DNA of 59,847 bases from Patescibacteria group bacterium (GTDB lineage: Bacteria; Patescibacteriota; Minisyncoccia; Phycocordibacterales; JACZSL01). The translations under genes and the position numbers were made by a program. The notes beneath the pieces are model-generated. The model saw only the letters and a program-made list of their open reading frames with translations, ran no database searches and was not told the DNA's origin. The stretch lies in the NCBI GenBank assembly GCA_022561335.1, contig JADFRL010000001.1:1-59847 (forward strand), read 5' to 3'. Below are positions 24,981-58,980 of this stretch, piece after piece. Each line of letters opens with the position of its first letter. Positions within the stretch are counted from its first letter, which is position 1.

Positions 24981-24981
24981 C

Positions 24982-25990: not shown

Positions 25991-25994
25991 ATAT

Positions 25995-34984: not shown

Positions 34985-35093
34985 AACGTAACTATAGTAT
35001 GGTATTTCAAACCCCTTTGCAAAAGATTATTGATAAAAATAAAAATTTACTATATAGTTTTTTAAACAGTCATAAAGACAAAATGAGGAGAAC

Positions 35094-35744
35094 ATGAAAA
35101 ACTTGCCACGACTCATTATCTTTGCATCCGGCACCAAAAACGGTGGCGGTTCAGGGTTTGGAGAACTTGTTCGAAACAGCAAAAAGGGAATGCTTAAAGC
35201 CAATATCATTGCAGTCGTTTCAGACCATACAAACGGCGGTGTACGTAGAATTGCTGACGAATACAACATACCGTTTGTCTGCTTTAAGGGTCCATGGACA
35301 GAAGATATGTATAAGAAAATCATCTTAGATAATAAAGCTGAGTGGATCGCACTGTCAGGATGGCTTAAGCTTGTGAAAGGGCTTGCCCCAAAGCAAACAG
35401 TCAACATCCACCCCGGACCACTGCCGCAGTTTGGCGGAGTCGGAATGTACGGCCGCTATGTACACGAAGCCGTAATGGAAGCATTCAGGAAAGGCAAGAT
35501 TACGGAGTCAGCAGTATCAATGCATTTTGTGACAGAAAAATATGACGAGGGACCCATTATTTTCAGAAAGCCGGTACCAATTGAAGAGATCGACACGCCA
35601 GAGACATTAGCCGCCCGTGTAAACAAAGTGGAGCATAAGTATCAAGCATTTGTAACAGATCTTGTGGTAAACAAACAAATAAAATGGGACGGCAAGGATC
35701 CGAAAACACTTGTGGTTCCAAAAGATTATCCTTTTCTCAACTAG
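35094..35744 (+). CDS. purN: Phosphoribosylglycinamide formyltransferase-like (formyl transferase family)
   Basis: RLIIFASG N-terminus, NIHPGPLP motif, GAGGAG SD. 216 aa. Confidence 0.75.
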   Translation: MKNLPRLIIFASGTKNGGGSGFGELVRNSKKGMLKANIIAVVSDHTNGGVRRIADEYNIPFVCFKGPWTEDMYKKIILDNKAEWIALSGWLKLVKGLAPKQTVNIHPGPLPQFGGVGMYGRYVHEAVMEAFRKGKITESAVSMHFVTEKYDEGPIIFRKPVPIEEIDTPETLAARVNKVEHKYQAFVTDLVVNKQIKWDGKDPKTLVVPKDYPFLN

Positions 35745-36002
35745 ATCGCGACCGTTCTATGTGAGTCTGGTGCTCTGATTGGAACGGGGATCAAAAACTC
35801 TTAATCTTCCCTATCTAAAACCAAATCAATAATTTGATCCTTAAGCTGACCCCTGGTCATCGCTAGATTTTAACACAAAACAATACCTATGGCGTTTGCA
35901 CAGCGGACCCAGAACACTCATTTCATAAGTGAACGGGCAAGCAGGACTCGGGGTCAAGTTTCTAAACTCGCTTTACTCGTCAAGACCCCCCCGGCCTCGC
36001 AG

Positions 36003-36755
36003 TCACAGAGCGACATCGCTCCGGCCTTTGAGTGTCGGCGCTCGTATCGAGCTTCCCTCAAGCGTAGGATGATTGAGCAATAGAGCTGCTCGATGACTTA
36101 CCCAGCCTTCAAAATCAATAAGCATAAGCTCAACTGAAGCGAGATTTGCACAAGATTCTATTCGCTTTAAATCACCAACAATTAATGCGACATTATTATA
36201 AGAACCAACCTTCCACGATGTACCTGTCATGTAGACACCTGCAATACTGTTTTTATTCCGATCCAAAAGAAGCAGAAAATATATCATCGGCTTATATTTT
36301 TCTGCACGATGCCACTCAATGTACGTGCCATCATAATGCATTACATTTTCAAGATCTATCGTCTCAGCTTTGACTGTAATATATGGTGAGGATATTTGAT
36401 TTAAAAAACTTCTTCCTTTATACGTCGCTAACACTTGCAGTGTCACCCCTTCCGCAACACTGGGTGAAAATGAATAAATAAGAGGGTTTTTGTATGGATG
36501 TAGATCAATCGGAGTTTTTTGTGCGTGTTCATTCTCTACCTTAGACGTTCCGATTGATTTGAGCCTATGGTATGCATGCTTATGGGAGGGAGTAAAAATA
36601 ATTTTGAGCGTACCGTCTGATTCATGCAGTCCACAGGCAATAACTTCATTGTTTGCATATATATTAATGAAGTATCGCGGCACGAAACCAAAAACACGCA
36701 CCATCCAGTCCATATTCCACACCAAAAACTTATAGAACGCCTTTCTCAGTTTCAT
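36003..36755 (-). CDS. Hypothetical protein (250 aa)
   Basis: Long ORF with no recognisable domain. The last ~27 codons run into a GC-rich stretch. Confidence 0.45.
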   Translation of the reverse strand: MKLRKAFYKFLVWNMDWMVRVFGFVPRYFINIYANNEVIACGLHESDGTLKIIFTPSHKHAYHRLKSIGTSKVENEHAQKTPIDLHPYKNPLIYSFSPSVAEGVTLQVLATYKGRSFLNQISSPYITVKAETIDLENVMHYDGTYIEWHRAEKYKPMIYFLLLLDRNKNSIAGVYMTGTSWKVGSYNNVALIVGDLKRIESCANLASVELMLIDFEGWVSHRAALLLNHPTLEGSSIRAPTLKGRSDVAL

Positions 36756-36773
36756 TTGGAGATCAAACAGAAT

Positions 36774-37133
36774 TCATGATAATTTATTTTTGATCAATGT
36801 AATCATTTCCGGTACTGACTTTACACCATCTATTTCAGTATGTGATATTAACAGCTCAACTGTTTCTTTTTTGAGCAAAAAGATTGCAGGCAATGCTGTG
36901 GTTTCATTAGGATATTTTTCCTTAAATTCATCACGGTGAAGAAATTGAACTGGTTGATCCAATGAATCGATAAATTGCTTCCACTCATTTTTCATAGTTC
37001 CAAACTTACCATAGGTCACCATGCAGAGATTGCATTGGTACTCGTCTGGTTTCAGAATCCGTCTAGCAAAATCACTGGCCGCAGCAAATAATGATGAGTC
37101 AGCGTTGTAGATAAATAAGAGTGTACTCTTCAT
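36774..37133 (-). CDS. Hypothetical thioredoxin-fold-like small protein
   Basis: LLFIYNADSSLF.., CNLC motif, ..PAIFLL. The ORF-track start is TTG, so the ATG at 37133 is preferred. Confidence 0.45.
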   Translation of the reverse strand: MKSTLLFIYNADSSLFAAASDFARRILKPDEYQCNLCMVTYGKFGTMKNEWKQFIDSLDQPVQFLHRDEFKEKYPNETTALPAIFLLKKETVELLISHTEIDGVKSVPEMITLIKNKLS

Positions 37134-37233
37134 ACATGCACAGTATAACAAAGTCTTTGATTTCAAAGTAGCAAATTTCTCAGCCTGCAAGAAACTAAAA
37201 ATAACCAGGAGATACCTGACTGCTTTCAGTTTT

Positions 37234-37432
37234 GCGCGGCGGACGGGACTCGGTCACGAGTCACTAAATATTCTACCGCGCTGTGCTTGTAGAATATTAA
37301 GTGCTCTCGACCCCGACTCAGCCCTCCCTCGTCCCCCGGACGCGGGCTTCTGTCTTTCGAGTCCCGTCTTCTACCACAATAGAAAGTAAAATCACCCAGA
37401 AAAATATCTGGGTAATTTTACTTCTGCGCGGC
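37234..37432 (-). repeat. Repeat X: tRNA-Asp 3'-end core (37234-37252) + ~173-nt element + 7-nt partial core
   Basis: Near-identical to 38812-39010. Differences are confined to one hairpin plus 2 nt. Confidence 0.9.
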
Positions 37433-37509
37433 ATCGTGGGCGATGTTAGAACTATTTTCATAAATAAAGGTGACGCTGTTGTGTACTTTCCAGAGATAGG
37501 GGTTATATA

Positions 37510-37561
37510 AAAAGGAAACCGCCCGACCAAGAGAGCCGAGGCGGTCTCTTTGGTGGGCGGT
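37510..37561 (-). terminator. Imperfect GC-rich hairpin followed by TTCCTTTTT on the minus strand, after the 361-aa gene
   Basis: ACCGCCC..AAGAGA / TCTCTT..GGGCGGT arms, 11 nt after the stop. Confidence 0.5.
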
Positions 37562-37571
37562 AGGTAAGCTG

Positions 37572-38657
37572 TTATGCCGCAGCACTTAGCTCGGCAATTC
37601 TTTGAAGGACCTCTGCACGATTGGAGACTCGGTAGAGCTTCTTGAGAGTACCCACCGTTGTAGCATTGGCGAGAGTCTTGGTATACGCACTCTTCCCAAC
37701 TGCGCTACCTAACTCCCCTAGGCGTCGAGCTGCGCTTAGCACATCCAGAAGTCGCTCAAAGGTGTCAGCTTGTTCAAGCTCCTTTGCGAGAAGTTCAAGC
37801 TCCTTTTCAAGGAAGCGGTGACGTATCTCTTTAGCGAGCTTTTGTTCCTCTTTGTCTCGCCATAGAGATTTGTAATCAAGGCGAGATGCTTCCTCCAAAG
37901 AGGAGACCAATTCGGCAAGCCTTTGGAAAAGTAGTTTTCCATCGATTTGCCCATCGAGCTTCTCTACATCATTGAAAGTCTGTGCTTGAGCAAGAGCTTG
38001 CTCGGAAAGTTCGCGGCGTTTCTGCGACAAAATCTCTGCAGCTTGTCCTTCGAGGTATGCTCCCAACAAAGTTTGAACGTCCTTGAGTGTTTCAATCTTG
38101 CTGCACCAACCAATGAGCCCCTCGCTACAGTCGCAAAACAATGGGGCGTATCGGTAATCGCTGTGAATGCGAAGTGCTTCTTTCAACGAAGGTGCGTTCC
38201 TCGTCGCCTCAATCGCCACCTTGTGCAAGTGGGCCCGCGCAGCTTCTTCCTCGATACTGCGATATTGGCAGTAGTCTCGGACCTTGCCCCACAAGTGCGT
38301 TGCATCATCCAAGGTTTTTGCAAGGGAAACAACTTTCTCTAGTGCTTCCTTACGTATACTTGCGTGTCCGAATGCCCACTCAATGATGAAGTGGGCGTCA
38401 GCGTACGTGCTGGCTAACCTCACTTTCTCCAAAATGATTTTGCGGAGTTTTGATTTGGCCGCTGCATACAACTCCTCATTTCTGGCTCGTTCAGAGTGCC
38501 CAGAAGCCCAGCCATGAATCGAGCTGACTTCCTCAATAGTCTCGACTACCCTGAGAAGCTCCAAATCAATAGGAATGCCAAGGTCCTCGGCTATGAGGTC
38601 GATGCGGGAATCCATTTCCCGCGACAGCTTCAAAGCCATTAGTGCGGATTTGCTCAT
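37572..38657 (-). CDS. Hypothetical all-alpha protein (361 aa), GC-rich
   Basis: GGAGGA SD, own promoter-like TATAAT (minus strand, about 38.73 kb) and own terminator. Ala/Leu/Glu-rich helical-repeat character. Confidence 0.55.
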   Translation of the reverse strand: MSKSALMALKLSREMDSRIDLIAEDLGIPIDLELLRVVETIEEVSSIHGWASGHSERARNEELYAAAKSKLRKIILEKVRLASTYADAHFIIEWAFGHASIRKEALEKVVSLAKTLDDATHLWGKVRDYCQYRSIEEEAARAHLHKVAIEATRNAPSLKEALRIHSDYRYAPLFCDCSEGLIGWCSKIETLKDVQTLLGAYLEGQAAEILSQKRRELSEQALAQAQTFNDVEKLDGQIDGKLLFQRLAELVSSLEEASRLDYKSLWRDKEEQKLAKEIRHRFLEKELELLAKELEQADTFERLLDVLSAARRLGELGSAVGKSAYTKTLANATTVGTLKKLYRVSNRAEVLQRIAELSAAA

Positions 38658-38775
38658 TTCATCCTCCGTGGTCTATATGACGTCTGGGACAATCATATAC
38701 TTTCACATAGGTTTTGTCATTTGAAAGCAAAAATTATTATACTAAAGTTTCAGTTCCAACGTCCCGTGAGTATAC

Positions 38776-38802
38776 ACAAAAGAACCTTACGTAGTAAGGC
38801 TC
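38776..38802 (-). terminator. Hairpin GAGCCUUAC-UAC-GUAAGGUUC + UUUUGU on the minus strand
   Basis: Immediately downstream (minus sense) of the second tRNA-Asp core copy. Confidence 0.5.
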
Positions 38803-38811
38803 TTTTCGCAA

Positions 38812-39010
38812 GCGCGGCGGACGGGACTCGGTCACGAGTCACTAAGTATTTTAGTTCGCTTTGCTTCTAAAATACTAAGTGCTCTCGACCCCGACTCAGC
38901 CCTCCCTCGTCCCCCGGACGCGGGCTTCTGTCTTTCGAGTCCCGTCTTCTACCACAATAGAAAGTAAAATCACCCAGAAAAATATCTGGGTGATTTTACT
39001 TTTGCGCGGC
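38812..39010 (-). repeat. Repeat Y: second tRNA-Asp 3'-end core (38812-38830) + ~173-nt element, abutting the real tRNA-Asp
   Basis: See repeat X. Confidence 0.9.
38961..39002 (-). terminator. Perfect 18-bp hairpin directly after tRNA-Asp (AAAGTAAAATCACCCAGA-N6-TCTGGGTGATTTTACTTT)
   Basis: Read directly. The copy in repeat X (37383-37424) has 2 mismatches. Confidence 0.5.
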
Positions 39011-39078
39011 GGACGGGACTCGAACCCGCAACTTCTGCCGTGACAGGGCAGTGCTCTATCCAATTGAACTACCGCCGC
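39005..39078 (-). tRNA. tRNA-Asp (anticodon GUC)
   Basis: GCGGCGG acceptor, anticodon arm CUGCC-CUGUCAC-GGCAG, T arm GCGGG-UUCGAGU-CCCGU. No encoded CCA. Confidence 0.9.
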
Positions 39079-39141
39079 ATTTTTATATTATACAGAAATA
39101 ACGTTATTAATCACGTAATTAATGACGTTATTTCAATCATG

Positions 39142-39215
39142 TGCCGGGAGTGAGAATTGAACTCACGACCTCAGGTTTATGAGTCCTGTGCTCTAACCAA
39201 CTGAGCTACCCCGGC
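39142..39215 (-). tRNA. tRNA with CAU anticodon (elongator Met, or Ile2 if lysidine-modified)
   Basis: GCCGGGG acceptor, GCUC/GAGC D stem, loop CUCAUAA, T arm GUGAG-UUCAAUU-CUCAC. A31-A39 mismatch noted. Confidence 0.8.
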
Positions 39216-39299
39216 GAAAGTAAAACTAAAAATAGCATTTCTACGGTGGTAATTCAACAACAAAGGAACACATGAAGCACCCCCTCGCCGCTTCGCTTA

Positions 39300-39340
39300 T
39301 TGCGGGGCCGGGAATTGAACCCAGGTCTGGAGGTTATGAG
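39300..39340 (-). pseudogene. Truncated initiator-tRNA copy (3' half only, anticodon loop to discriminator)
   Basis: 38/41 identical to 50234-50274 of the intact tRNA. Identity stops exactly at the 5' edge of the anticodon loop. Confidence 0.85.
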
Positions 39341-39677
39341 TCTGATTGAGGAGTAACAGAAAAGTAGTCAAAAGACATTGGGAAATAAGAACATGTGTAT
39401 CTACTGAGCCGCTGTTTGTTTTTTGAGAACTTTCCAGTTGTACTCAGCAGATGTCAGATTTAGTCACTTTTTATCACTTTTTGGGCAACCTGTGGGCGAC
39501 GCTTTAGGTTATGCTCGTCTAAATTATTATTGGAAAGAGCAATATAAGAAGAGTGATAAATTTAAGTGGATGTGATTTTATCCACAGAGTTGGCGAATCC
39601 TAGTTACAAACTACTCATATGCAAAAGGTGTAATGCAAAGCTATACTCCAAACTATATATAGGACTAGTTGTGCATT

Positions 39678-40244
39678 TTAACGAGAAATTGATATCTCCG
39701 TGGAATTCTCTGATTCACAAGCCCGTACGTGGAGAATTCCTGTGGTTTCGCGCTCCAATGTATAACCTGTACCTTCCTCACCTGCCGTATCTCCATCATC
39801 CCAAGTTACTGCACCAGTCGGGCTAATTGGTATAGAACCAAGGTATCCCTCGGTTATCATACCGGACAGGTTTACACAATCTGTGTCTCCCGTGACATTT
39901 GTATCACAACTTGCGTTATTGTCGTCACATCCAGCCACCATGCTTGCACCGTTTACAATCATATAGACATTTCCTGCTGTCATACTTGAGATTGTAGAGA
40001 GGTATGAGCCACCGTTATCTACTTGGTCAATTTTAATGGCAGAAAGAACAGCGGTAACATCAGACCAACGCGACGAGTCACGTGCATCTTGAAACCGCTT
40101 TAATGGGTCAAGGGCCACAAAAACAACAGACGCCAATATTGCTATAATAGCCATCACAATAAGAAGCTCAATGAGTGTAAACCCAGCCCTTCTCTTCTTC
40201 ACATCAAAAGAAACGCTGGGTAAGCTGCCCCACCTTTTTCCCAT
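39678..40244 (-). CDS. Type IV pilin-like protein
   Basis: Prepilin motif AGFTLIELLIVMAIIAILASVV. Paralogue of the next gene. Confidence 0.75.
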   Translation of the reverse strand: MGKRWGSLPSVSFDVKKRRAGFTLIELLIVMAIIAILASVVFVALDPLKRFQDARDSSRWSDVTAVLSAIKIDQVDNGGSYLSTISSMTAGNVYMIVNGASMVAGCDDNNASCDTNVTGDTDCVNLSGMITEGYLGSIPISPTGAVTWDDGDTAGEEGTGYTLERETTGILHVRACESENSTEISISR

Positions 40245-40272
40245 AATAACGTTACTAGTTAATTACAGAACT

Positions 40273-40764
40273 CTACCTGGTGATAAATATAGCTCCGCTC
40301 CCTTCCGCATCACAAGCGCCTACTTCAACAAAACCATCACTTGATTTGTAAAGATAATAGTCGGTTTCCGCAGCTGTTCCTGTACTAGGATCGACTGGAA
40401 TGCTCCCTATATAACCTTCTGTCACTAAGCCGGAGAGATCCAAGCAAGCCGCAAGAGTTGTTGTGGCCGTGCAACCAGAATCACACCCAGATACAGCAGT
40501 ACCAAGCTGATGGGTTCCGTCGGCAGCACCGTTAAGAGCAGAAATATAGGTTCCACCATTATCTACTTGATCAACTATAATTGCTCCAACCATCGATGAA
40601 ACGTCTTGCCAACGAGTTGCGTCCCTTGCATCTTGAAAGCGTGTTAATGGATCAAGGGCCACAAAGACAACGGCTGCCAAAATGGCAATAATAGCAATAA
40701 CAATCAAAAGCTCGATCAGGGTAAACCCTCTGTTCGTATTATTCTTTATTTTGTCAAGATTCAT
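40273..40764 (-). CDS. Type IV pilin (probable major subunit of set A)
   Basis: RGFTLIELLIVIAIIAILAAVVFVALDP. 163 aa. Confidence 0.8.
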   Translation of the reverse strand: MNLDKIKNNTNRGFTLIELLIVIAIIAILAAVVFVALDPLTRFQDARDATRWQDVSSMVGAIIVDQVDNGGTYISALNGAADGTHQLGTAVSGCDSGCTATTTLAACLDLSGLVTEGYIGSIPVDPSTGTAAETDYYLYKSSDGFVEVGACDAEGSGAIFITR

Positions 40765-41029
40765 AATGCTTAATATTTAAAATACTTTCAGCCTTATAAT
40801 TTTTATATTATATCATTCATCAAGCTCCTATAATAGAGAATAGATACCTCCCACAGGGGATAGCGCTGCCATCTTAAAATTGTCCACATCTGGACCATTT
40901 CTAAAAATAAATCAACTTCGGAGGTACACGGCTCGTATTTAGTTTTATTAAGATTAGGTTTTCGCTAGAGCCACTGCTGATTTTAACTATTCACGCTGAG
41001 AATGAATCTTTGCTTTATATCTGGCTCGC

Positions 41030-42259
41030 TTATTGCTCATATATTATGGGTTTATCGTACCAAAATGAGACAGAAAGTATTAAAGTTATCACTAAGAGTA
41101 GAGCCGTCAAAACAATTTCTTTACGATAAGTTTTTATCCAATTTTGAACCTTAAAAGGAGGCCTTACTTTTCCATCTTGCACAACGCTCGTGAGGGGCTC
41201 TGCCCGAGAAGTGCTCGAGAATCCGAGAGAAAAGGTCGGTTGATCGTTCCATCTACTTTCAAGATTCCGGAGTGCAAGGCCTATCGACTCAAGGTAAAGC
41301 AGCCCATCATCCTCAGACATTATTATGACTGGTTTTCCGAGACGTGCAGGAATATTTAGATTGACATTAAAATACTCTGGGAGTCCAGAAAGGAGACTCG
41401 AACCACCTACAAGAATGAGCTCCTTTACACTACTTTCTGTTTGGGACTTCAAATATGAAAAGGCAGTATTGCTCTCCATAACAATTATCTCTAAAACTTT
41501 AACTAAGGCATTGCAAACTTTCTCTCCTGGTTTCGTAAGTCCTTCCTTCCTTTTCTCCTCCTCTGCCTTATTTAGATCCTTAACAGAAAGTGCTCGTGCA
41601 ACTTCCGCCGTCATAGCATCACCTCCAATATTAAGCGTGTGCGAATATCGTATACCCGCTTCATCAAAAATATTTATATTTGTTGTAACGGATCCCAAAT
41701 CTATGATGCAGACTGGCAACTTGACTTGCTTGCTAAATATCCCTCTGTAAATAGCCAACGCTTCAATATCAAATGCGTCTATTTTTATATTGGCAGTTCT
41801 AAAAAAATCTTGCCAGGTAACAAAGGCTTTCCTGCTAATGGCAACAAGAAAAATTTCTGCTTTATCCCCATTCTCACTTATTATCTGGTATGAATAAATC
41901 AGGTCATCCGAGGGTAGTGGAATATGGCTTTGGGCTTCTTCAGATATGAGACCCAATCTCTTTTCTTTTTCATGCGGACCTATTGAAAAGACGTGCGTAT
42001 AGACCAAGGACCCTGGTAATCCAAAGATTACCCCGGCAGGTTTAATGGGTTGAGGTTGGGCGTTTTCAAATAAAGACTTCAGAACTTCTGTGAGCCTGTC
42101 TGCATTTTTAATCTCCCCACGCTCAACCACACCAGGTGCCAATTGAGTTCTGCCAGTGCTTGTAACATTTATTTTAGTGCCCTCTTTAGTCAGTTCAACA
42201 ACCTCAATGGTGTGATCAGCTATATCAAGACCTATCGCTTTTTTGTTAAAAATTTTCAT
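41030..42259 (-). CDS. pilM: Type IV pilus assembly protein PilM with C-terminal TM segment (PilN-like tail)
   Basis: Actin-like ATPase fold signature start IGLDIADHTIEVVEL. TM helix near the C-terminus. Confidence 0.75.
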   Translation of the reverse strand: MKIFNKKAIGLDIADHTIEVVELTKEGTKINVTSTGRTQLAPGVVERGEIKNADRLTEVLKSLFENAQPQPIKPAGVIFGLPGSLVYTHVFSIGPHEKEKRLGLISEEAQSHIPLPSDDLIYSYQIISENGDKAEIFLVAISRKAFVTWQDFFRTANIKIDAFDIEALAIYRGIFSKQVKLPVCIIDLGSVTTNINIFDEAGIRYSHTLNIGGDAMTAEVARALSVKDLNKAEEEKRKEGLTKPGEKVCNALVKVLEIIVMESNTAFSYLKSQTESSVKELILVGGSSLLSGLPEYFNVNLNIPARLGKPVIIMSEDDGLLYLESIGLALRNLESRWNDQPTFSLGFSSTSRAEPLTSVVQDGKVRPPFKVQNWIKTYRKEIVLTALLLVITLILSVSFWYDKPIIYEQ

Positions 42260-42265
42260 AAATAT

Positions 42266-42670
42266 TTAATCGCTTTTTTCCTCCCATGAAATAAGCGTGA
42301 TGTCATTTCCAGAAAGTGTAATGTTCGTCTCAATCTTTCCATAATAATTGTCTGTCGTGCTTGCTGTCACAGTTATTTCTCTATTGCTGCCACTAGGTAC
42401 AACACTTATTATACATGACCCATTTTCTGTTGTTACATTACCCCCACTGTAATTAGTGTCCAGAATAATTCTACGCAAAGCTTCATCAGTACAACCATCA
42501 GCTATTGAAAAAGCTTCCTCTCCACGAGATTCCACATATCCTTGGTCAAGCTCTCCCAAGCCCAAAATAGAGCTCGACAAGGCCATAATTAAAGCCGCAG
42601 CTCCTACTATTACGATGGTCAATAGAGCCACAATACCTCTATTGTCTGAGACTAATCGATGTTTGGGCAT
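42266..42670 (-). CDS. Pilus-associated membrane-anchored protein (PilX-like, no cleavage motif)
   Basis: N-terminal TM (IVALLTIVIVGAAALIMAL) and position inside the minor-pilin block. Confidence 0.4.
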   Translation of the reverse strand: MPKHRLVSDNRGIVALLTIVIVGAAALIMALSSSILGLGELDQGYVESRGEEAFSIADGCTDEALRRIILDTNYSGGNVTTENGSCIISVVPSGSNREITVTASTTDNYYGKIETNITLSGNDITLISWEEKSD

Positions 42671-43169
42671 TTTGTTCATAATTATAAACTGAACTAGCAC
42701 TTATATTATTATATTCAACCGTAATCTCTAATCGTATATTTTCTCTAGAGGTAAAATACGTTAAATCAGTGAACACAAGATTGACTACATTCACTCGATC
42801 AGATGTTACTGAAGACGTAGCATACGATCCTTCTTTTATTACAAGAGTTCCATTATCTTCATCAAGACTTATAGTTGTAGGATTTAAGGTACTTGAGGCC
42901 ATCGCAAGAGACAAAAACCCTGGATCTGTGTCAAAAATTGAGCTTCCTATGTTAATATCCTGAGCTGCTCTAATTCTTCGACGAATCATATCAAGAGCCA
43001 CCCTTGTATTAGCTTGGACTTCTTGAACAACATACGTCTTACCACGAGAATCAGATATGGAAATGCTGAAACTGATAAAACTTGAAACTACAATACCGAT
43101 AATTGAAATGTAAATAAGAGTTTCAATTAACGTAAACCCCTCACTGTTTCTTTGTGAAGATATTTTCAT
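42639..43169 (-). CDS. Minor pilin (PilW/PulJ-like)
   Basis: EGFTLIETLIYISIIGIVV prepilin motif. Confidence 0.65.
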   Translation of the reverse strand: MKISSQRNSEGFTLIETLIYISIIGIVVSSFISFSISISDSRGKTYVVQEVQANTRVALDMIRRRIRAAQDINIGSSIFDTDPGFLSLAMASSTLNPTTISLDEDNGTLVIKEGSYATSSVTSDRVNVVNLVFTDLTYFTSRENIRLEITVEYNNISASSVYNYEQNAQTSISLRQ

Positions 43170-43171
43170 AC

Positions 43172-44722
43172 TTATTGATAATTTATCCTTATTTCCTCCA
43201 TTATTGGCGTATCAGTACCATTTCCATCAATAGTCAATCTATAACGAATCCACTGGTCTCCATTGTGATCTGTGTGTATAAGTTCTCCAGAAGGATCAAT
43301 AAAATAATCAGTCACATCTCCATCTTTTCCTTCGGGGCCAGACCATTCAGCACTACTAAGCCCCGCTTGAGTAGCAGCAGTCCGAATCTGAACTCTTACA
43401 TCACAAGAGGCACCACATGCAACGTTAGTTACGCTTTCTGTCCATTCTACAATATTAAATACACTTGCGGTGCCCGTATCAAAGTCTGATGAGATATAAA
43501 ATCCGGAGGAAGCATACCCAGGAGATGCAGTAGATGGATGCACGACTATTGTACGGGTTTCCCAAGGAGCACTTTTGCTAAGTGTGAAAGCTCCAGGATC
43601 TTCACTTGAAGAAGTTGTATGAATATATGCATGCCCGCCAGTAGCACCAGCCCCTCCACCACCGGTTCTAAATTTAACTACAGTTGAATAGCCACCTGGA
43701 CCAGATCTGACAGTTCTTCTACCATCGGTATTACCATCAACAGCGATAAAAAGATAATCCTTTGGACCTCCTGTGGGCGTTATTGAGTCTGGATCAGGAG
43801 CATTACTGTCGCCTGTTGCGCCACTTGATACTTCAGGTGCTTGAATCGAAGGATTTTCGTGCCCTGTAATCTTAAGGTAGGTAGATCCAGAGCGCGAGCC
43901 AGAGGAAGAGGTAAAAGATGGAGTCTCACTCCCCACGAGCTGTTTATAGTACACGGCGCCACCACTTGAATCATACAATTCTATCCAACCTGTTGTGCCT
44001 GAGGTTTGTGTCCATGTAGATGCAATATCTCCACTTTGAAGAAAAACAATATATAAATCTCCCGATACCGGAGTCCCTGAAAGTGAAATACTAAATGCTC
44101 CTCCATTATTATCGGTTTCTGAACCTTCTGATACTACTGTCAGAGATAATTCTTGTAAGATTATTGCACCATCGGAATCACCGAGCGTAGTGGAATTTTC
44201 ACTGCTGCTAAAAGTTCCGTCAGTAAAATCGGAATTGGTGTCCTCTACCCAATATTGTGAGTCCCAGTTTGTTATATAAGCAACACGCTTTACAGTGTTA
44301 GAAATCCCCACACGCGTATTCCAGATAACTGTTACGGTTGTTTGTTTGCTATTTAAATCTGTATAACTGCCCGGGCAAATAGTTATATTGTCTGACCCAT
44401 CTCTACAAACATCATCAAAAGAAATTGTACGAGTGTATTGACCAATTGTTTCTGTAGTATCCTCTCCATTAAATATCCACCTGCCGCTGCTTGATGAAAC
44501 ACTACTCGTGCTAAATATATTTTCGTTCCACGCTCCATCGCGAATAGCACGGACCGCTTCAGTTCCCTCCTCAGCAAGTGCTGTCGCTTCGATGTATTCA
44601 CCACCCTGCTGCAACGCCACAAATCCACCTGTGGCTAGAGATGTCATAGCAGCACCGATAAGTGCAAAAATAGCTAAAGCCACTATGACTTCAAGAATTG
44701 ATTGTCCGCTGTTGTAATTCAT
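43172..44722 (-). CDS. Large pilin-like protein (516 aa), candidate tip/adhesin subunit
   Basis: N-terminus GQSILEVIVALAIFALIGAA (pilin-type helix with Glu at +5), followed by a large Ser/Thr/Gly-rich domain. Confidence 0.55.
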   Translation of the reverse strand: MNYNSGQSILEVIVALAIFALIGAAMTSLATGGFVALQQGGEYIEATALAEEGTEAVRAIRDGAWNENIFSTSSVSSSSGRWIFNGEDTTETIGQYTRTISFDDVCRDGSDNITICPGSYTDLNSKQTTVTVIWNTRVGISNTVKRVAYITNWDSQYWVEDTNSDFTDGTFSSSENSTTLGDSDGAIILQELSLTVVSEGSETDNNGGAFSISLSGTPVSGDLYIVFLQSGDIASTWTQTSGTTGWIELYDSSGGAVYYKQLVGSETPSFTSSSGSRSGSTYLKITGHENPSIQAPEVSSGATGDSNAPDPDSITPTGGPKDYLFIAVDGNTDGRRTVRSGPGGYSTVVKFRTGGGGAGATGGHAYIHTTSSSEDPGAFTLSKSAPWETRTIVVHPSTASPGYASSGFYISSDFDTGTASVFNIVEWTESVTNVACGASCDVRVQIRTAATQAGLSSAEWSGPEGKDGDVTDYFIDPSGELIHTDHNGDQWIRYRLTIDGNGTDTPIMEEIRINYQ

Positions 44723-45201
44723 TGTCCAAAAATACTACCAATTCTTGTAATGGTAACCGTGCGCGCACCCTGTGCATCGTGCGTCAGAATTACTGTACCT
44801 GTAGCATTTGGACCGCCAAAACTTTTTGAAAAAGAGACTTCATCACCTGAGAGTGTCGTCGAAAGCATTATGCTCGAACTCAATGTCAGAGCTCGATCAT
44901 AGTTTGAATCTCGTGTAGCAAACGAGTCTCCTTGATAGAGAATGAAACGGTCATCTCCAGGAGCATTTATCTCAAAATATACGCCGTGCATTGAATCATT
45001 TCTACGAGCTATACTACGCTCGCGAGCTGTTCGCAGCGTTTGCACAATTTGATCCATAGAGTCATTAAGTTGGCTTGAGACTTGTAAATTACCATAGATA
45101 GGAATGGCTACAACTACCAGAGCAAGAGTAATTCCAATGACGATCAAAAGCTCAATTAATGTAAAACCACACTTACCTTTGGATATTGCCGGTAATGTCA
45201 T
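44719..45201 (-). CDS. Minor pilin (GspH/FimT-like)
   Basis: CGFTLIELLIVIGITLALVVV. Confidence 0.65.
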   Translation of the reverse strand: MTLPAISKGKCGFTLIELLIVIGITLALVVVAIPIYGNLQVSSQLNDSMDQIVQTLRTARERSIARRNDSMHGVYFEINAPGDDRFILYQGDSFATRDSNYDRALTLSSSIMLSTTLSGDEVSFSKSFGGPNATGTVILTHDAQGARTVTITRIGSIFGQ

Positions 45202-46255
45202 AAATTGGAGTTATTATGGAAAGAGCCAGAAAACCCACCACCAATCCTATGAAAAGAAGTAGTAGTGGTTCTATGGCAGTAGATAAGGCTTTGGTAGCAG
45301 TATCCACCTCATCTTCATAATATGAGGCCAAATAAAACAAGGTCTTTTCAAACTGACCCGATTCTTCCCCAACTTGAATCATTCTTGTTGCAAGTACAGG
45401 GAAAAGATTATTAAAAGTAGCTAAGTTGTCAGAGAGTTTAGAACCCGATCTGATATTACGACTCACACGTTTTAGAGCTCGAGCATAATAGAAATTACCC
45501 ACAGTATTCTCCGTAATTTCTAATGATTCATCAATACGTAAACCGCTCTTTAAAAGCATCCCCAGTGTGCGAGAAAATCGGGCTAAGTTTGCATTCATTG
45601 TAATACGTCCAATGATAGGTGTGTGCAGAAGAAACCAGTGAGTAAAGGGTTTCGTGAAGGACTGTCGTACTAACCAAATTGTAAAAGTAAAAAAGACAAT
45701 AATACTCAGGAAAAATATCAGTCCATTATTTTCTATAAAATGAGAGAATGCAATAAGGGCTTTTGTGGTTGTGGGTAACTCCACTCGCAAACCTTCAAAA
45801 AGTGGAGTGATCTTCGGTAAGATTACAAAAGAAAGAATCATACCAAGAATAAATGTCGCTATCAGTATCACAACAGGATAGACCAGTGCCCCCTTCACTT
45901 TTGCGATAAGATCTTTTTCTTTTTCCAACTGAACAGAAATGTTTTCAAGATTTCCCACCAACGTACCTGATAATTCTCCAGCTCTCGTGGCACTTACAAA
46001 TAGGCCAGAAAATATTTTAGGATATCGAGAAAAGGAGTCAGCCAAGGTGTGGCCAGACATTACAGACTCTGAAACACCTCTTAAAACACCGGAAAGTTTA
46101 CTACGTGAAGACTGTGACGCAATATCGAGCGCTTCGATTAATGGCAAACCACTGTGAAGCATAACCGATAGTTGTTTAGCAAATAGTGCCTTGTCCACCA
46201 AAGAAACTCCTCCTAATTGGATGTCTAACACACTCTTTTTCTTATATTTAAGCAT
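45173..46255 (-). CDS. pilC: Type IV pilus platform protein PilC (GspF family)
   Basis: Two GspF-type repeats. QVGEESGQFEKTL and C-terminal PIYDITGNI. Confidence 0.85.
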   Translation of the reverse strand: MLKYKKKSVLDIQLGGVSLVDKALFAKQLSVMLHSGLPLIEALDIASQSSRSKLSGVLRGVSESVMSGHTLADSFSRYPKIFSGLFVSATRAGELSGTLVGNLENISVQLEKEKDLIAKVKGALVYPVVILIATFILGMILSFVILPKITPLFEGLRVELPTTTKALIAFSHFIENNGLIFFLSIIVFFTFTIWLVRQSFTKPFTHWFLLHTPIIGRITMNANLARFSRTLGMLLKSGLRIDESLEITENTVGNFYYARALKRVSRNIRSGSKLSDNLATFNNLFPVLATRMIQVGEESGQFEKTLFYLASYYEDEVDTATKALSTAIEPLLLLFIGLVVGFLALSIITPIYDITGNIQR

Positions 46256-47949
46256 TATCCTTTTGTAACCCTTAACACTTCTTCAATTGTCGTAACTCCA
46301 TTCAACACTTTCCCAATTCCATCTTCGACCATGGTTGTCATTCCGTTTTCTTTGGCTATTTTTAATATCTCGTCGCTACTAGCTCTATCGATTACTAATT
46401 GCTTAATATTTCCTCTCATAAGTAATACTTCAAAGACACCAATACGACCAATATATCCAGTACTTCCACATATTTTACAACCAGATCCCTTGAAAATCAC
46501 TAATTTATCTAGATTTCCGGCTCCTTTTGCAAGCAGTAGATTCATTGCAACGTCATTTCGTTTTACCATTTCTATCTCCTCTGAACTAAGATTGGCTGAT
46601 TTTCGACAACCCTGACAAATCTTTCTTACTAATCGCTGAGCAATTATCACATTTATAGTTGATGCTATTAAAAATGGCTCAATATCCATATCAAGTAACC
46701 TTGGCAAAGATGTGGCAGCATCATTTGCGTGTAGTGTGGAGAGAACTAGATGGCCAGTCATAGCTGAATTAGTTGCAATATCGGCCGTTTCCTTGTCACG
46801 AATCTCGCCAACCATAATAATGTCAGGGTCTTGACGAACAATGGCACGAAGTCCGTCAGCAAACATGAGATTAGTTTTCTTGTCTACCTGAATCTGGCTA
46901 ATACCCTCAATGTCATACTCGACCGGATCTTCAATTGTTGATATATGGACTTCTCTAGTGTTAAGGATTCTCAACACTGCATAGATTGTGGTTGTCTTGC
47001 CACTTCCCGTTGGACCGGTGACAAGAATCATGCCATGTGGATTATCTATGGCTTCCTGTACCTTCGATAGATCAGAGTCATTTAAACCAATATCACTTAA
47101 ATTAAACTGACGATTAGCAGCACTTAATAGCCTCAAGACAATATTTTCTCCCTCAACCACTGGTACAACAGAAACTCTAACATCGACACTACCACTACTG
47201 TCAACCTCAAAACGAAACTTACCGTCTTGTGCTGCTCGGTGTTCATCAGTGCGCATGCGCGACATAATTTTTATTCGAGTAAGAATCAGATCAAGAAGAT
47301 TATTTGGGATCTCAAGAACATCGTGCATAATTCCATCAATCCTGAAACGTATCAGTATTTTCCCCCGATGCGGTTCAATGTGTATATCAGAAGCTTTATT
47401 CTGGTAGCCATACGCAAGGAGCGTATCCACCACTTTGATAGTCATCTTGTCTCTCTCCTCTTGTGGTAAGGAAGGGTTCTTTAGCTCTTCAAGTATCTTT
47501 TCAAACTCTTCATACAAACTTGCCTTATATCTCGAGAGAACACCCTTCAAATCACGCTTCGTAATAAAATACGGAACAATATTCTCGCCCATACGTTTTT
47601 CGATGGCGTGGCGAGTCTCTATATCACCCGGCTCAATCATACCAACCTTCACACCATCTTCACTTCGACCAAATGCAACAACACCCATACGGCGCGCCAC
47701 AAGTTCTGGAATCATTTCAAAATGTGCCTCATCAAAAGCTTCGTTCCGCAAATTAACAAACGGGAAGCCTGTAATTTGTGCCAACAACTGTCCTAACTGC
47801 TCGTCTTTTATAAGATCTTCAGAAACCAAAATTTCCTCTATAGAAACACCATGTTCCTTTGCCTCATTGAGAGCCTCATTAAAATGTTCAATAGAAATGT
47901 GACCAGGACTCACCAAAATGTCTTTCAGTTTTTTCTCGTCAAAATACAT
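46255..47949 (-). CDS. pilB: Type IV pilus assembly ATPase PilB (GspE family)
   Basis: Walker A GPTGSGKTT, Asp box, CxxC..CxxC tetracysteine (CQGC...CKIC). Confidence 0.9.
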   Translation of the reverse strand: MYFDEKKLKDILVSPGHISIEHFNEALNEAKEHGVSIEEILVSEDLIKDEQLGQLLAQITGFPFVNLRNEAFDEAHFEMIPELVARRMGVVAFGRSEDGVKVGMIEPGDIETRHAIEKRMGENIVPYFITKRDLKGVLSRYKASLYEEFEKILEELKNPSLPQEERDKMTIKVVDTLLAYGYQNKASDIHIEPHRGKILIRFRIDGIMHDVLEIPNNLLDLILTRIKIMSRMRTDEHRAAQDGKFRFEVDSSGSVDVRVSVVPVVEGENIVLRLLSAANRQFNLSDIGLNDSDLSKVQEAIDNPHGMILVTGPTGSGKTTTIYAVLRILNTREVHISTIEDPVEYDIEGISQIQVDKKTNLMFADGLRAIVRQDPDIIMVGEIRDKETADIATNSAMTGHLVLSTLHANDAATSLPRLLDMDIEPFLIASTINVIIAQRLVRKICQGCRKSANLSSEEIEMVKRNDVAMNLLLAKGAGNLDKLVIFKGSGCKICGSTGYIGRIGVFEVLLMRGNIKQLVIDRASSDEILKIAKENGMTTMVEDGIGKVLNGVTTIEEVLRVTKG

Positions 47950-48030
47950 ACCTTATATAAAGTATAAACCAAAATACCCCACATGGGGATACACCAAAAA
48001 AATATAATCACGTGACTCCAATGATGGAGC

Positions 48031-48423
48031 TTATGTGTTAGATTTAGCGATGTAAAACTTTACTTTCTCGATTACCTGCTTCATTGATAAATTTGATTTG
48101 ATAAGGTAATCTACAGCTCCCAGCTCCTTAGCTTTTTTAACATCTGATTCTTGACCAAGATTTGATAGCACTATAATTGGTATTTTCTTGAAAATACTAC
48201 TTAGATTTATTTCCTCAAGAACCTCAAAACCATTCATTATTGGCATAACAAGATCAAGAAGAAGCAACTGAGGAGGCTCATTAGACATCTTCTCTAGAGC
48301 TTCCTTTCCATTCGTCGCAATCGTGACTTCAAAACCAGCACGTTTTAAACCGTCCCCATAGGCACGGCTAATAAACTTATCATCTTCTACTAATAATATT
48401 TTCCGTCTAGAACTTTCTTTCAT
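48031..48423 (-). CDS. Stand-alone response regulator receiver (CheY-like)
   Basis: ILLVEDD, LLLLDLVMP (phospho-Asp), LSNLG, K near the C-terminus. No output domain. Confidence 0.85.
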   Translation of the reverse strand: MKESSRRKILLVEDDKFISRAYGDGLKRAGFEVTIATNGKEALEKMSNEPPQLLLLDLVMPIMNGFEVLEEINLSSIFKKIPIIVLSNLGQESDVKKAKELGAVDYLIKSNLSMKQVIEKVKFYIAKSNT

Positions 48424-48817
48424 ACGTTACTTTTTGTGGAAAGAAAATACCATTAATCCAACCGGTCAAGTATGCAAGCGAAGTATCCGCCTTTACAAAG
48501 TAGATCATGGCCCCTGCTTGTGCCGCTTCTTTTACTTTTTCTCCTCCTCCTACATTCGTCAGCATAATAACAGGTATTTCTTTTGTCTCTATATCATCCT
48601 TTAATTTAATTAAAACAGATATGCCATCCAATTTTGGCATCAATATATCCAATAAAATTAAATCGGGATGAAATATCTTCACTTTTTCTAACGCATCTTC
48701 ACCATCAAGTGAGATACCCACATCATAACCGGCTCTCATGAAATGATCTTTGTATGCCCGTACAAGTGTTTCGTCATCTTCGATGAGTAGAATTTTTAGT
48801 TTATTATTTTCAGACAT
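48407..48817 (-). CDS. Stand-alone response regulator receiver (CheY-like)
   Basis: ILLIEDD, LILLDILMP, MLTNVGG. The ATG at 48817 (MSENNKLK) is preferred. Confidence 0.8.
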   Translation of the reverse strand: MSENNKLKILLIEDDETLVRAYKDHFMRAGYDVGISLDGEDALEKVKIFHPDLILLDILMPKLDGISVLIKLKDDIETKEIPVIMLTNVGGGEKVKEAAQAGAMIYFVKADTSLAYLTGWINGIFFPQKVTYERKF

Positions 48818-48942
48818 AGGGATGATCGTTGAGCATAAAGCAAACTGCAATGTATATGCTTCTTTTGCTAGATCTTGCTTAGCATTATAATCATCTCGAC
48901 CTCTTCCATTGCAATTAGTATATTATATATATAGTCAAACAA

Positions 48943-50058
48943 TCAAGCCAAACCTTGTTCACCACTCCTTTTTTTCATCCCTTTCAAAGGAATCTCAACG
49001 TAAAAAGTAGTTCCTTTTCCAATACCTTCAGATTCAAACCAAACCTTACCACCGAACGCATCTGTGATCATTTTTACTAAATACAAACCTAGTCCCGTTC
49101 CTTTGGTTACAGATTTAACCGCATTATCCGTCCTATAAAATCTTTCGAATATTCTTTTCTGATCTTTTTTTGCAATACCAGTCCCAAAGTCTTTAACACT
49201 AACAATAAAATTGTTATTTTTTTGTTCTAGTCGCACAATAATATCGCACCGTTTTCCCTCGGAGTACTGAATAGCATTGTCTAACAAGTTGCCAACTATC
49301 TCACCAAAGAGGACTGGGTCGAGAAAGGTGTCGCTTGAATGCAGATCTCCTACCTCAAATTTGATATTACATTTTTTATCTTCCGCTAAATACTTATGTT
49401 CTTTAACGATTTTGTCAATGAGTTTTACGATGTTGTTTATCACCGGTTCAATACGCAGCCTCCCCTCCTCGAGACGGGATACGTTCAAAAGATCATTGAC
49501 CAAAGCTGCCATTCTATCAGTTGAATCATGTATATTTTGTAAATACTCTTTTTGTTTACCTTGAAGATTACCTACTTCTCCACTTAAAAGCATCTCCGAA
49601 AATAATTTTATTGCAGTGAGCGGAGTTCTTAACTGATGCGATGCTAACGACACAAATTCGGTTTTCATGCGATCGACTGCCTGGAGTTGAGTAATATCGT
49701 AAAAAATGAAAGCGCCGCCACTAATAGCATACTTATCATTCCGTATAGGTGTGACAACTAATTCAAACACTTTTTCTCCAAGCAGAACCTGTTTGAAAAA
49801 AACCGCCTTACCTCCTTGGTGCAACACCTTTTCCATTACAAACGAGAGGTCTAATATTATTGTTGTGTGCATTTTTGTATCCCTTTCTTTTCGAAAAAGA
49901 TTGATAAAATCTTTCAGCACAGCATCTCCACGGTAAACGCCTGTCATACTTCGTATAAAAGGATTCGCGAGGATAAGATTGCTCTCATTGTCAAACATCA
50001 ACACCCCCACGGTCATTGTCCGGAGGAGATCAAAAATGAGTTGTCTACTTGTATCCAT
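48943..50058 (-). CDS. Cytoplasmic sensor histidine kinase (PAS-like + HisKA + HATPase_c)
   Basis: H box SHQLRTPLTAI, N box LLDNAIQYS, G boxes DFGTGI and GTGLGLYLV. No TM helix. Confidence 0.85.
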   Translation of the reverse strand: MDTSRQLIFDLLRTMTVGVLMFDNESNLILANPFIRSMTGVYRGDAVLKDFINLFRKERDTKMHTTIILDLSFVMEKVLHQGGKAVFFKQVLLGEKVFELVVTPIRNDKYAISGGAFIFYDITQLQAVDRMKTEFVSLASHQLRTPLTAIKLFSEMLLSGEVGNLQGKQKEYLQNIHDSTDRMAALVNDLLNVSRLEEGRLRIEPVINNIVKLIDKIVKEHKYLAEDKKCNIKFEVGDLHSSDTFLDPVLFGEIVGNLLDNAIQYSEGKRCDIIVRLEQKNNNFIVSVKDFGTGIAKKDQKRIFERFYRTDNAVKSVTKGTGLGLYLVKMITDAFGGKVWFESEGIGKGTTFYVEIPLKGMKKRSGEQGLA

Positions 50059-50233
50059 ACTATTTAATTACTTAAATATTCTTTCGTTGTCGTCAAGGTC
50101 TACCTAATCATTCTGGTAATATTTGGTATTTTTATTTATCCATACAACAATTGTATCACTCACCAAACCAATAACCACACGAAGGTTGTGGTTTTCGGTG
50201 CTAAGTACGTCCTGTAAACTATACCTTAATTTG

Positions 50234-50304
50234 TTGCGGGGCCGGGAATTGCACCCGGGCCTGGAGGTTATGAGCCTCCCGAGGTACTACTCCTCCACCC
50301 CGCT
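50234..50304 (-). tRNA. Initiator tRNA-fMet (anticodon CAU)
   Basis: Aligns to the E. coli tRNA-fMet pattern (xGCGGGGUGGAG...CUCAUAA...CCCCGCAA) with a 1:72 mismatch (A-A). The T loop reads UGCAAUU. No encoded CCA. Confidence 0.8.
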
Positions 50305-55681: not shown

Positions 55682-56160
55682 TACGATACAAATATAGCTC
55701 GCTCAACACGGCGTGGGTTATCGGTATCACACGTGTTGTGTCCTCGAGATTCGATTCGCGTCTGTGAAGGAAATCCGAATTTAGCCACTTCGACGTCCAC
55801 ACATCCATCCCCCACGATGAGCTCAAATGTAGTTGTGGCAGCGTTTGCATCATTGGTTATGCTCCACGTTGTTGCAATGTCTTCACCAACACAATCAACG
55901 CCGTCCCCCGGAGGTATTGAGTCAGTACTTGTGGCAAATGCAGAATCGGTTCCATTGTAATTAAAATCCCAGTTGAGTGCACATTCGATACCCGTATCGG
56001 CCGCATAAAAAGCAAACTGAGACTCTCTGGCCGCAGAACTCAGAAGGACTTCTTTTATGGTTATGTTAAAAATGGCAAGGGCCACGACTAACAGTAGTGA
56101 GCTTATAAGTGAGCCTAGAAGCAATGCAAATCCCCCTTTTGTGTTATTTCCATATCGCAT
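55678..56160 (-). CDS. Pilin-like membrane-anchored protein (PilX-like, lacks Glu+5)
   Basis: KGGFALLLGSLISSLLLVVALAIF. Its stop overlaps the ligA start by 4 nt. Confidence 0.5.
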   Translation of the reverse strand: MRYGNNTKGGFALLLGSLISSLLLVVALAIFNITIKEVLLSSAARESQFAFYAADTGIECALNWDFNYNGTDSAFATSTDSIPPGDGVDCVGEDIATTWSITNDANAATTTFELIVGDGCVDVEVAKFGFPSQTRIESRGHNTCDTDNPRRVERAIFVSY

Positions 56161-56162
56161 AT

Positions 56163-56693: not shown

Positions 56694-56697
56694 AAAG

Positions 56698-57342: not shown

Positions 57343-57381
57343 TTCATTAAACAGTGAGAGTCCCCTACTGCGTACTAAATA

Positions 57382-58008: not shown

Positions 58009-58019
58009 AAGCTGCCTTC

Positions 58020-58820: not shown

Positions 58821-58915
58821 ACCTCATTATGGCATTTTTTAGGTCAAAATATAGGGTCAGTCCCCACAGGACAAGCACCGAATCCACTTGAGAGGATTGT
58901 GTACCAAGCGCCTAA

Positions 58916-58946
58916 AAACAAACCCCTTGTTTGGAGGGGTTTGTTT
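58916..58946 (-). terminator. Intrinsic terminator after the major pilin gene (12-bp stem AAACAAACCCCT/AGGGGTTTGTTT + TTTTT on minus)
   Basis: Read directly. Confidence 0.65.
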
Positions 58947-58980
58947 AATGCACTTTATATCGCTAACCATCACACACTCG

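Follow-up and report, generated by a model that had tools for sequence, protein, structure and literature searches.

How did an operon for a type IV pilus and a two-component system come to stand inside a cluster of tRNA genes, with an initiator tRNA gene (tRNA-fMet) at one end and a displaced copy of the 3' half of that same gene at the other? The question is raised by a 10.9-kb block in a contig from the genome of an ultra-small Patescibacterium of marine sediment (JADFRL010000001.1); the window, as we call the whole stretch of DNA analysed, comprises 59,847 nucleotides. The original prediction, made from the letters of the DNA alone, had proposed that a pilus module arrived here as mobile DNA. 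Of this proposal the insertion and the repeat geometry have stood, and a foreign origin, a recombinase, an excision product and a deviant composition have not been found. The explanation that we tentatively favour, and consider quite possible, is a fossil recombination scar of the attachment-site (att) type at a tRNA hot spot, made by an enzyme that would have acted in trans or has since been lost, with a relocated native operon as its content. Below, L numbers denote fetched related loci or contigs and X numbers sequencing runs; the pilus genes of the block are called set A, those from 55.7 kb onward set B.

Six tRNA genes were located in the window with ARAGORN and Rfam. The intact initiator tRNA shows an A1xA72 mismatch and the T-loop TGCAATT and has no encoded CCA; as A1xA72 or C1xA72 together with the ...GCAAC end is kept in the initiator tRNAs of 28 related loci, this tRNA(CAT) is the initiator tRNA of the group. 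Its anticodon stem (GGAGG/CCTCC) has G:C at 30:40 and 31:39 but A:U at 29:41, and relatives vary. Initiator tRNAs of the group often carry a G at T-loop position 55 (TGCAATT, in several relatives), and their D-loop lacks the usual GG.

The repeat finder aligns 39297-39343 with 50231-50277, 42 of 47 positions being identical in direct orientation with both copies on the minus strand; ungapped comparison of 39300-39340 with 50234-50274 gives 38/41, the figure already reported in the original prediction, whose stop at the 5' edge of the anticodon loop is accurate to within 2-3 nt. A chance match was rejected, since by our own estimate one of 42/47 in 60 kb has a probability of about 1e-15. The displaced copy comprises the entire T-arm and variable loop and, with them, the anticodon loop, the 3' strands of the anticodon stem and of the acceptor stem, and a few bases of flank. 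On the minus strand the intact gene reads AGG CTCATAA CCTCC AGGC CCGGG TGCAATT CCCGG CCCCGCA ACAA and the fragment AGA CTCATAA CCTCC AGAC CTGGG TTCAATT CCCGG CCCCGCA ATAA. The block of identity begins 2-3 nt 5' of the anticodon loop CTCATAA and ends about 2-4 nt past the end of the tRNA (discriminator), and it is towards the pilus block that the 3' end of the intact tRNA points; beyond the anticodon loop, on the 5' side, the two copies are unrelated. Local alignment over the 334 nt upstream of the fragment revealed no remnant of a tRNA 5' half (188 of 500 shuffles score as high).

The same arrangement is present in the independent assemblies L161 and L162, which are 99.85-99.89% identical to the window, and is thus no assembly artefact; four sequencing runs carry it too. 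In other strains the junction of the fragment lies at the same place (loose end 50274), and in one strain, from run X4, the tRNA-like part is at least 95% identical to the intact 3' half. By our estimate, a random truncation has only about a 7% chance of lying no more than 2 nt from the loop edge. A repeat running from the anticodon loop to the 3' end, proposed earlier as an integrase-target geometry, agrees with the class of tRNA islands that have an anticodon-centred site in the Islander survey, about half of the total (2083 of 3919; PMC4383910). Split tRNA genes of the Nanoarchaeum type, which consist of separate 5' and 3' half genes divided after position 37, with complementary leaders and no intact gene, were considered and rejected: here an intact gene is present, the fragment begins before the anticodon loop and has neither a 5'-half partner nor a complementary leader, and the gene content is bacterial. 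As a side observation, the contig of L170 (GatA 65%) stops at 6342, a point exactly within its tRNA-fMet anticodon loop (...GGCTCATA); a de Bruijn assembly would break in this manner at a repeat that begins there, and that genome may hold another displaced 3' half.

The position of the block was analysed against related loci. A GatA search of GTDB genomes and JGI metagenomes matched Patescibacteria alone (labelled Paceibacterota, Nomurabacteria and the like), with no identity above 64% and best values of 61-64%; closer relatives (86% and 68%) were reached via a protein index, on contigs of 2-5 kb that are too short for both junctions. From tRNA scans and tblastn maps of 57 Patescibacterial loci the conserved order is [PilB/PilT-RR-PilB-PilC-pilin-PilD-four small prepilin-like genes]-LigA-GatC-GatA-o451-tRNA(fMet)-tRNA(Met)-tRNA(Asp)-tRNA(Thr)x2-PrfB-FtsE-FtsX-CTP synthase, where RR stands for response regulator. 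The initiator tRNA was found in 28 loci, 19 of which also have the elongator tRNA(CAT); the gap between these two genes is 42-474 nt in 17 of the 19, against 11 kb in the window, and set-A genes lie between tRNA-fMet and tRNA-Met in none of the 57. The compact cluster of the relatives, set against the distance seen here, identifies the pilus and two-component block as a lineage-specific insertion. That relatives without the pilus genes should have tRNA-fMet adjoining tRNA-Met and tRNA-Asp had been put forward as a check, and they do, in those 17 of 19 loci.

The junction beside tRNA-fMet is a hot spot with differing cargo in relatives: a 5.8-kb MacAB-type cluster (L172), 4.5 kb (L106), 1.06 kb with a flanking 20-nt tRNA repeat (L017), and GIY-YIG genes between tRNA-fMet and tRNA-Met (L012, L015). 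The ancestral cluster of the window has a second break, at 34985-39003, where about 4 kb separate tRNA-Asp from the tRNA-Thr pair (8-68 nt in L003 and L084); it holds a formyltransferase-like gene, three open reading frames (ORFs) without hits, and an array of U elements and the ORF o361, both treated below. At 18854-22938 there is a MacA/MacB-type efflux cluster with a small ORF carrying a T4SS_pilin domain (22468-22938), and it is a similar cluster that forms the cargo at tRNA-fMet in L172.

The explanation that we favour takes as its starting point the ancestral order LigA-GatC-GatA-o451-tRNA(fMet)-tRNA(Met)-tRNA(Asp)-tRNA(Thr)x2-PrfB-FtsE-FtsX. Into this order 10.9 kb would have been inserted between tRNA-fMet and tRNA-Met, with one breakpoint within tRNA-fMet at the 5' edge of its anticodon loop. 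The tRNA-fMet would have been rebuilt by a second copy of its own 3' part, and the original 3' part would have been left beside tRNA-Met as a dead fragment. Islands of tyrosine integrases in tRNA genes reportedly use such an anticodon-loop ("A") sublocation, as Williams is said to have described in 2002, and from the attL/attR geometry of this class we infer site-specific recombination. A recombinase would thus have catalysed the exchange, cargo and scar would stem from one event, and the enzyme, not encoded in the block, would have acted in trans or been lost since. What was inserted is the lineage's own type IV pilus operon together with the two-component system, which either moved within the genome or came back from a close relative. 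In the window, tRNA-Gln and tRNA-Asp likewise carry blocks that are bounded by copies of the adjoining tRNA's 3' end and in which no recombinase was found, so that recombinase-less tRNA-bounded blocks are the rule in this genome.

A number of observations weigh against this explanation. Pfam detects no recombinase among the 12 ORFs of the block, PHROGs being silent on the one without a Pfam hit, and no integrase, transposase or other recombinase is found among the ORFs scanned across the window. IMG/VR, scanned by pattern for a copy resembling attP, gave 0 matches. Present mobility was surveyed in the assembler contigs of four sediment metagenome runs, from which rare forms could escape; no empty site within the species was seen and no credible empty-site or circle junction, a result that cannot prove absence. 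The few joints encountered have sides of 20-29 nt and are probably from tRNAs of other organisms. Sequencing depth in the four metagenomes is even over the block and its flanks, e.g. 37-38 vs. 36.5 in X4. Nor does the block look foreign: its tetranucleotide correlation with the rest of the window is 0.93 and its GC content 0.396 vs. 0.414, its protein identities to relatives (PilB 84/70/66%, histidine kinase 77%) track those of the flanking housekeeping genes (GatA 86/68/64%), and in L175, the nearest relative with data, the operon adjoins rplU (ribosomal protein L21). The operon is now fixed, without sign of mobility or foreignness.

A further difficulty comes from the 95-nt leader that follows the intact tRNA. 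Two closer relatives, L168 and L169, were found by way of o451. The tRNA-fMet of L168 is identical to that of the window over 76/76 nt and that of L169 at 89%, and both loci have a small element of about 205 nt directly 3' of it. In L169 this is followed by a 19-nt copy of the tRNA end, by 95 nt that are 86-87% identical to 50138-50232 (a stretch bearing the terminator hairpin as well as an extended -10-like TGATATAAT), and after these by a PLD-like gene, not the histidine kinase. A crossover inside the tRNA would make the leader part of the element, yet L169 shares it. As read from these alignments, the DNA that moved may have its proximal boundary somewhere other than in the tRNA. One possibility is that the leader is ancestral flank, in which case the operon boundary would lie at about 50082-50138 and the tRNA fragment would need a separate or different explanation; the other is that the leader represents a conserved arm of an element family integrating at this tRNA. 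In the small element 3' of tRNA-fMet, a U element, the first 58 nt are 100% identical between L168 (1958-2015) and L169 (2547-2604), with neighbouring DNA at 72%, and the hairpin that comes next differs between the two by compensatory changes. This identity suggests strong constraint or recent exchange of the U element.

Patescibacteria rely on type IV pili (T4P) for host attachment, motility and probably DNA uptake. The genes of the block, transcribed from the minus strand, are in order a histidine kinase (HK), two receivers, PilB, PilC, three N_methyl minor pilins with one hitless ORF, PilM and two paralogous pilins; the content listed in the original prediction is borne out by Pfam in this form. 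The order HK-(RR)-RR-PilB-PilC-minor pilins-PilM-pilins is common to L164, L166, L176 and L177, where the operon stands in another neighbourhood each time and never adjoins tRNA-fMet, and set-A PilB orthologues across Patescibacteria are 60-70% identical. At the DNA level PilB-PilC is 83.7% identical to L167 and HK-RR 80% to L175, compared with 77.8% (L168) and 69.5% (L169) for GatA-o451; homology to L175, a contig from the JGI sample that also yielded L169, begins at about 50082, 24 nt before the start codon of the kinase. In the tetranucleotide comparison by 4-kb windows, values of 0.80-0.86 are obtained for the conserved flank at 50-58 kb, so the block is no more deviant than its syntenic flank, and the compositional check suggested for a foreign block returned a native one. 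Native composition, divergence like that of relatives and shared gene order therefore lead to the conclusion that the cargo is native to the clade: set A is the canonical Patescibacterial type IV pilus operon, and it is as one operon that it changed its place in the genome or was regained from a close relative.

The peptidase PilD had been placed outside the block, in the second set at 58 kb, and a Peptidase_A24 domain is indeed found there (58020-58820). Set B (55678-59847 and beyond, L161 1-6195) comprises a PilT-like 353-aa ATPase, PilC, a pilin, PilD and four small prepilin-like genes, with PilT just past the end of the window, and throughout the group its synteny with LigA-GatCA is conserved. 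Saccharibacteria/Patescibacteria are known to have two T4P loci, of which one includes PilT and PilD and the other does not (PMC11623550; PMC9894109), as described in cultivated Saccharibacteria (PMC11623550). The division is alike here, set B holding PilT, PilD, PilC and pilins, and set A PilB, PilC, PilM and pilins without PilT or PilD; set A is thus the normal second T4P locus and not an extra one. Unlike the Saccharibacterial loci, the operon is headed by HK-RR-RR here and in L166 and has a lineage-specific position in the tRNA cluster, and the pilus is known here from its genes. The coordinates are collected in Table 1.

Table 1. Features of the pilus block, its boundaries and the other tRNA-associated elements of the window, listed from high to low coordinates
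Feature	Position	Strand	Basis or remark
Intact initiator tRNA, anticodon CAT, 72 nt	50233-50304	-	ARAGORN; Rfam tRNA 53.4 bits; initiator tRNAs of relatives
Repeat copy 1, attL-like: anticodon loop to 3' end of intact tRNA and a few flanking nt	50231-50277	-	
95-nt leader after intact tRNA	50138-50232	-	terminator hairpin 50173-50193; extended -10-like TGATACAAT at 50150-50158, read from sequence
Histidine kinase (HisKA + HATPase_c), first gene of block	48943-50058	-	Pfam
Two CheY-like receivers	48407-48850 and 48031-48423	-	Pfam
PilB assembly ATPase (MshEN + T2SSE)	46255-47949	-	Pfam
PilC platform protein (T2SSF)	45173-46255	-	Pfam
Minor pilins of 160, 516 and 176 aa (N_methyl) and 144-aa ORF without Pfam hit	42266-45201	-	same positions in L164/L166 operons
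PilM (PilM_2/FtsA-like)	41030-42259	-	Pfam
Two paralogous pilins (N_methyl), 189-nt internal repeat D2	39678-40764	-	Pfam, repeat finder
Terminator-like hairpin after last pilin	39566-39585	-	overlaps "DnaA box" 39578-39586
Non-coding distal spacer, 222 nt	39344-39565	-	
Repeat copy 2, attR-like: displaced 3' part of tRNA-fMet	39297-39343	-	four to five substitutions vs. copy 1
Remaining ancestral tRNA cluster: 81-nt spacer, tRNA-Met 39141-39215, tRNA-Asp 39004-39078	39004-39296	-	ARAGORN, relatives
U1, ~190 nt, directly 3' of tRNA-Asp	38812-39003	-	
o361, 361-aa all-helical ORF	37572-38657	-	GC 0.47-0.49 vs. background about 0.40
U copy after the 361-aa ORF	37234-37432	-	
U relic	~35935-36050	-	
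U copy ending exactly on third tRNA-Gln 3'-end copy	29539-29684	+	
tRNA-Gln	24591-24662	+	further copies of last 20 nt at 24981-25000 and 29665-29684

The 9-mers resembling DnaA boxes, pointed out earlier just inside both ends, are present (39578-39586 a perfect TTATCCACA, 50136-50144 with one mismatch) and do not serve as end markers: the window has 23 such sites vs. 17.3 +/- 3.8 in shuffles, which is not above chance, and the one at 39578-39586 falls within the terminator hairpin of the last pilin gene. The distal spacer (39344-39565) has no significant fold (z = -0.8 vs. shuffles) and no homologue in any fetched locus. It is polymorphic, with deletions of 78 nt (39351-39428) and 100 nt (39355-39454) in contigs of full genome depth from run X4. 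Among known RNA families, Rfam finds tRNAs only around the tRNA cluster and in L168 and L169.

Compared with the tRNA islands collected by Islander (PMC4383910), the locus is alike in that the 3' end of the intact tRNA points towards the insert and a cognate displaced 3' fragment in the same orientation lies at the far end, in that the block of identity extends from the anticodon loop through the 3' end, a recognised sublocation, and in that relatives lack the insert at this site, a hot spot where the cargo varies. It is unlike them in that no integrase gene was found in the interval, an integrase being a filter criterion of Islander, in that a core, native-looking operon is the cargo, with no compositional deviation and no evidence of excision, and in that 95 nt beside the rebuilt tRNA end are common to a relative with other content. 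What is seen here is a variant of the tRNA-island pattern already known, departing from it in the integrase criterion. Segments flanked by att sites but devoid of recombination genes are known as cis-mobilizable elements (CIMEs) or decayed islands (PMC5704250). Att-like direct repeats at both ends, the absence of integrase and transfer genes inside and the need for a recombinase in trans are common features, whereas CIMEs are defined by the kinship of their att sites to a mobilising integrative and conjugative or integrative and mobilizable element, and for this locus, with 60 kb of its genome covered, no such partner is known and none was found in IMG/VR.

Of the competing explanations the one that survives best, though we regard it as unlikely, is an origin without a recombinase, either by homology-anchored illegitimate recombination after DNA uptake or by decay of a tandem duplicate. 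In the first version, DNA of a relative with tRNA-fMet, leader and operon would have been anchored in o451 or the 5' half of the tRNA and joined illegitimately inside the resident tRNA; in the second, tRNA-fMet would have been duplicated in tandem and one copy later deprived of its 5' half as the operon came in or was rearranged. In either version the 47-nt copy would be the remnant of a resident or duplicate gene and the breakpoint at the anticodon loop a coincidence. In many bacteria DNA is taken up by means of type IV pili, which we count in favour of this route, and homology-facilitated illegitimate recombination after natural transformation is an established mechanism. As applied to this locus, one end would be anchored in conserved sequence, a tRNA or a neighbouring gene, and the other joined without homology; no site-specific recombinase would be needed, and the donor would be a relative. 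In favour of a recombinase-free origin are also that no recombinase is found among the scanned ORFs, that the cargo is native in composition and diverges as relatives do, and that L169 shares the leader, which this route explains with no extra assumptions; the identity of the tRNA to that of L168 over its full length, while the adjoining DNA is at 78%, also fits, and the X4 copy of the fragment, close as it is to the intact 3' half, is compatible with gene conversion. On the other hand, this route predicts neither a hot spot with tRNA-end repeats nor a breakpoint exactly at the loop edge, the classical integrase sublocation that chance would hit as rarely as estimated above. Two copies of the initiator tRNA occur in 0/28 related loci, no trace of a 5' half precedes the fragment, and a donor with the operon behind tRNA-fMet is needed, whereas in the sole close relative with data the operon lies next to rplU.

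Distinctly unlikely, in our judgement, is a history of two events, in which the fragment is the scar of an earlier, lost element and the operon came later, by an unrelated rearrangement downstream of the terminator-promoter leader. Such a history would suit a junction that is hypervariable in relatives, with other cargo in each, and the position of the operon boundary 55-95 nt from the tRNA, given that homology to L169 ends at 50138 and that to L175 begins at about 50082. It would also suit the 222-nt spacer, which is unstructured, homologue-less and indel-rich between strains, like decaying leftover DNA. It does require two events at one place, and no remnant of the genes of another element is seen; moreover, the fragment is young if neutral (about 10% diverged from the tRNA) and the leader is older than the split from L169.

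A more speculative possibility, which we rate as improbable, starts from the other tRNA-bounded blocks and from units of about 175-215 nt, non-coding and situated directly 3' of tRNA genes, that we call U elements. These consist of a long hairpin, a closing helix in which an inverted copy of the T-loop, T-stem and acceptor of the host tRNA pairs with a direct copy of its last 18-19 nt, in mimicry of a minihelix, and conserved inner helices; in their ends they are fashioned after Asp, Met, fMet, Thr, Gly or Gln tRNAs, and they also occur in L012, L017, L025, L089, L094, L102, L106, L169, L172, L173 and L176. U1 folds at -97 kcal/mol (z = -10). An alignment of 14 copies, based on the model and fitted to it, has 91.8% of its cells paired, against 68.7% in shuffles; compensatory double changes are seen in 20 of 21 pairs, and slid controls give 27-41%. 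No Rfam family matches. The cargo blocks closed by a U module are o361 at tRNA-Asp, a 4.7-kb ABC-transporter block at tRNA-Gln and HIT in L017.

At tRNA-Gln, copies 1 and 2 of the 3' end enclose a small GIY-YIG gene within an 84-nt direct repeat (24644-24727/24982-25065), and copies 2 and 3 enclose a pair of ABC-transporter genes plus a membrane-anchored ORF of 459 aa, on the strand opposite to most of the region. No recombinase was found among the scanned ORFs of this block (24591-29684); the 459-aa ORF (27919-29298) has no hits and shows, by eye, an N-terminal membrane anchor and a beta-rich body. The ORF o361 is bracketed by two 94%-identical U copies and by copies of the tRNA-Asp 3' end. 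It was considered as a hidden recombinase and has no Pfam, PHROGs or PDB sequence hit; its AlphaFold model has a pLDDT (predicted local distance difference test) of 55, too poor for a fold search. In run X23, from a library labelled metatranscriptomic, one 173-nt contig joins the end of U1 to its start (192 back, 19 nt shared), with flanking genes at depth 0-2; the joint was not seen in the DNA runs X4 and X6. It could be a tandem U-U arrangement in another strain or a 192-nt circular form.

By analogy, then, tRNA genes might be the anchors of a cassette-capture system without a recombinase in cis, in which U modules of about 130 nt close the cargo and of which the pilus operon would be a further product. 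The closing helix of U would rebuild a double-stranded copy of the tRNA T-arm and acceptor in one folded strand, like integron attC or the CTX attP used by XerCD, and it would be at the 3' ends of tRNAs that a recombinase of the host places such cassettes. The fMet fragment itself was rejected as a U-type element or structured RNA: there is no inverted T-arm copy nearby, no covariance-model hit at 39.3-39.7 kb and no fold (z = -0.8). Least credible, and effectively refuted, is that the arrangement is ancestral with the operon lost in relatives, or that the repeat is due to chance or assembly, for although all compared relatives are fairly distant (GatA 86% or less), the cluster is compact in 17/19 loci of many lineages, orthologous operons stand in four other contexts, the repeat is far beyond chance, and three independent assemblies and four runs agree.

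Little is known about how the small genomes of Patescibacteria rearrange. Here a core pilus and regulator operon has been placed as a unit in a tRNA cluster, with a tRNA-half scar and no recombinase found. Together with the differing cargo at this junction in relatives, this points to tRNA clusters as hot spots at which native operons and foreign genes are shuffled by an enzyme in trans. It also advises caution in the search for genomic islands, a tRNA with a displaced fragment being in itself no proof of foreign content. The structured tRNA-tail repeats, i.e. the U elements, may be the more original lead, and if the cassette-capture reading is true, even core operons would be shuffled via tRNA hot spots in these reduced genomes.

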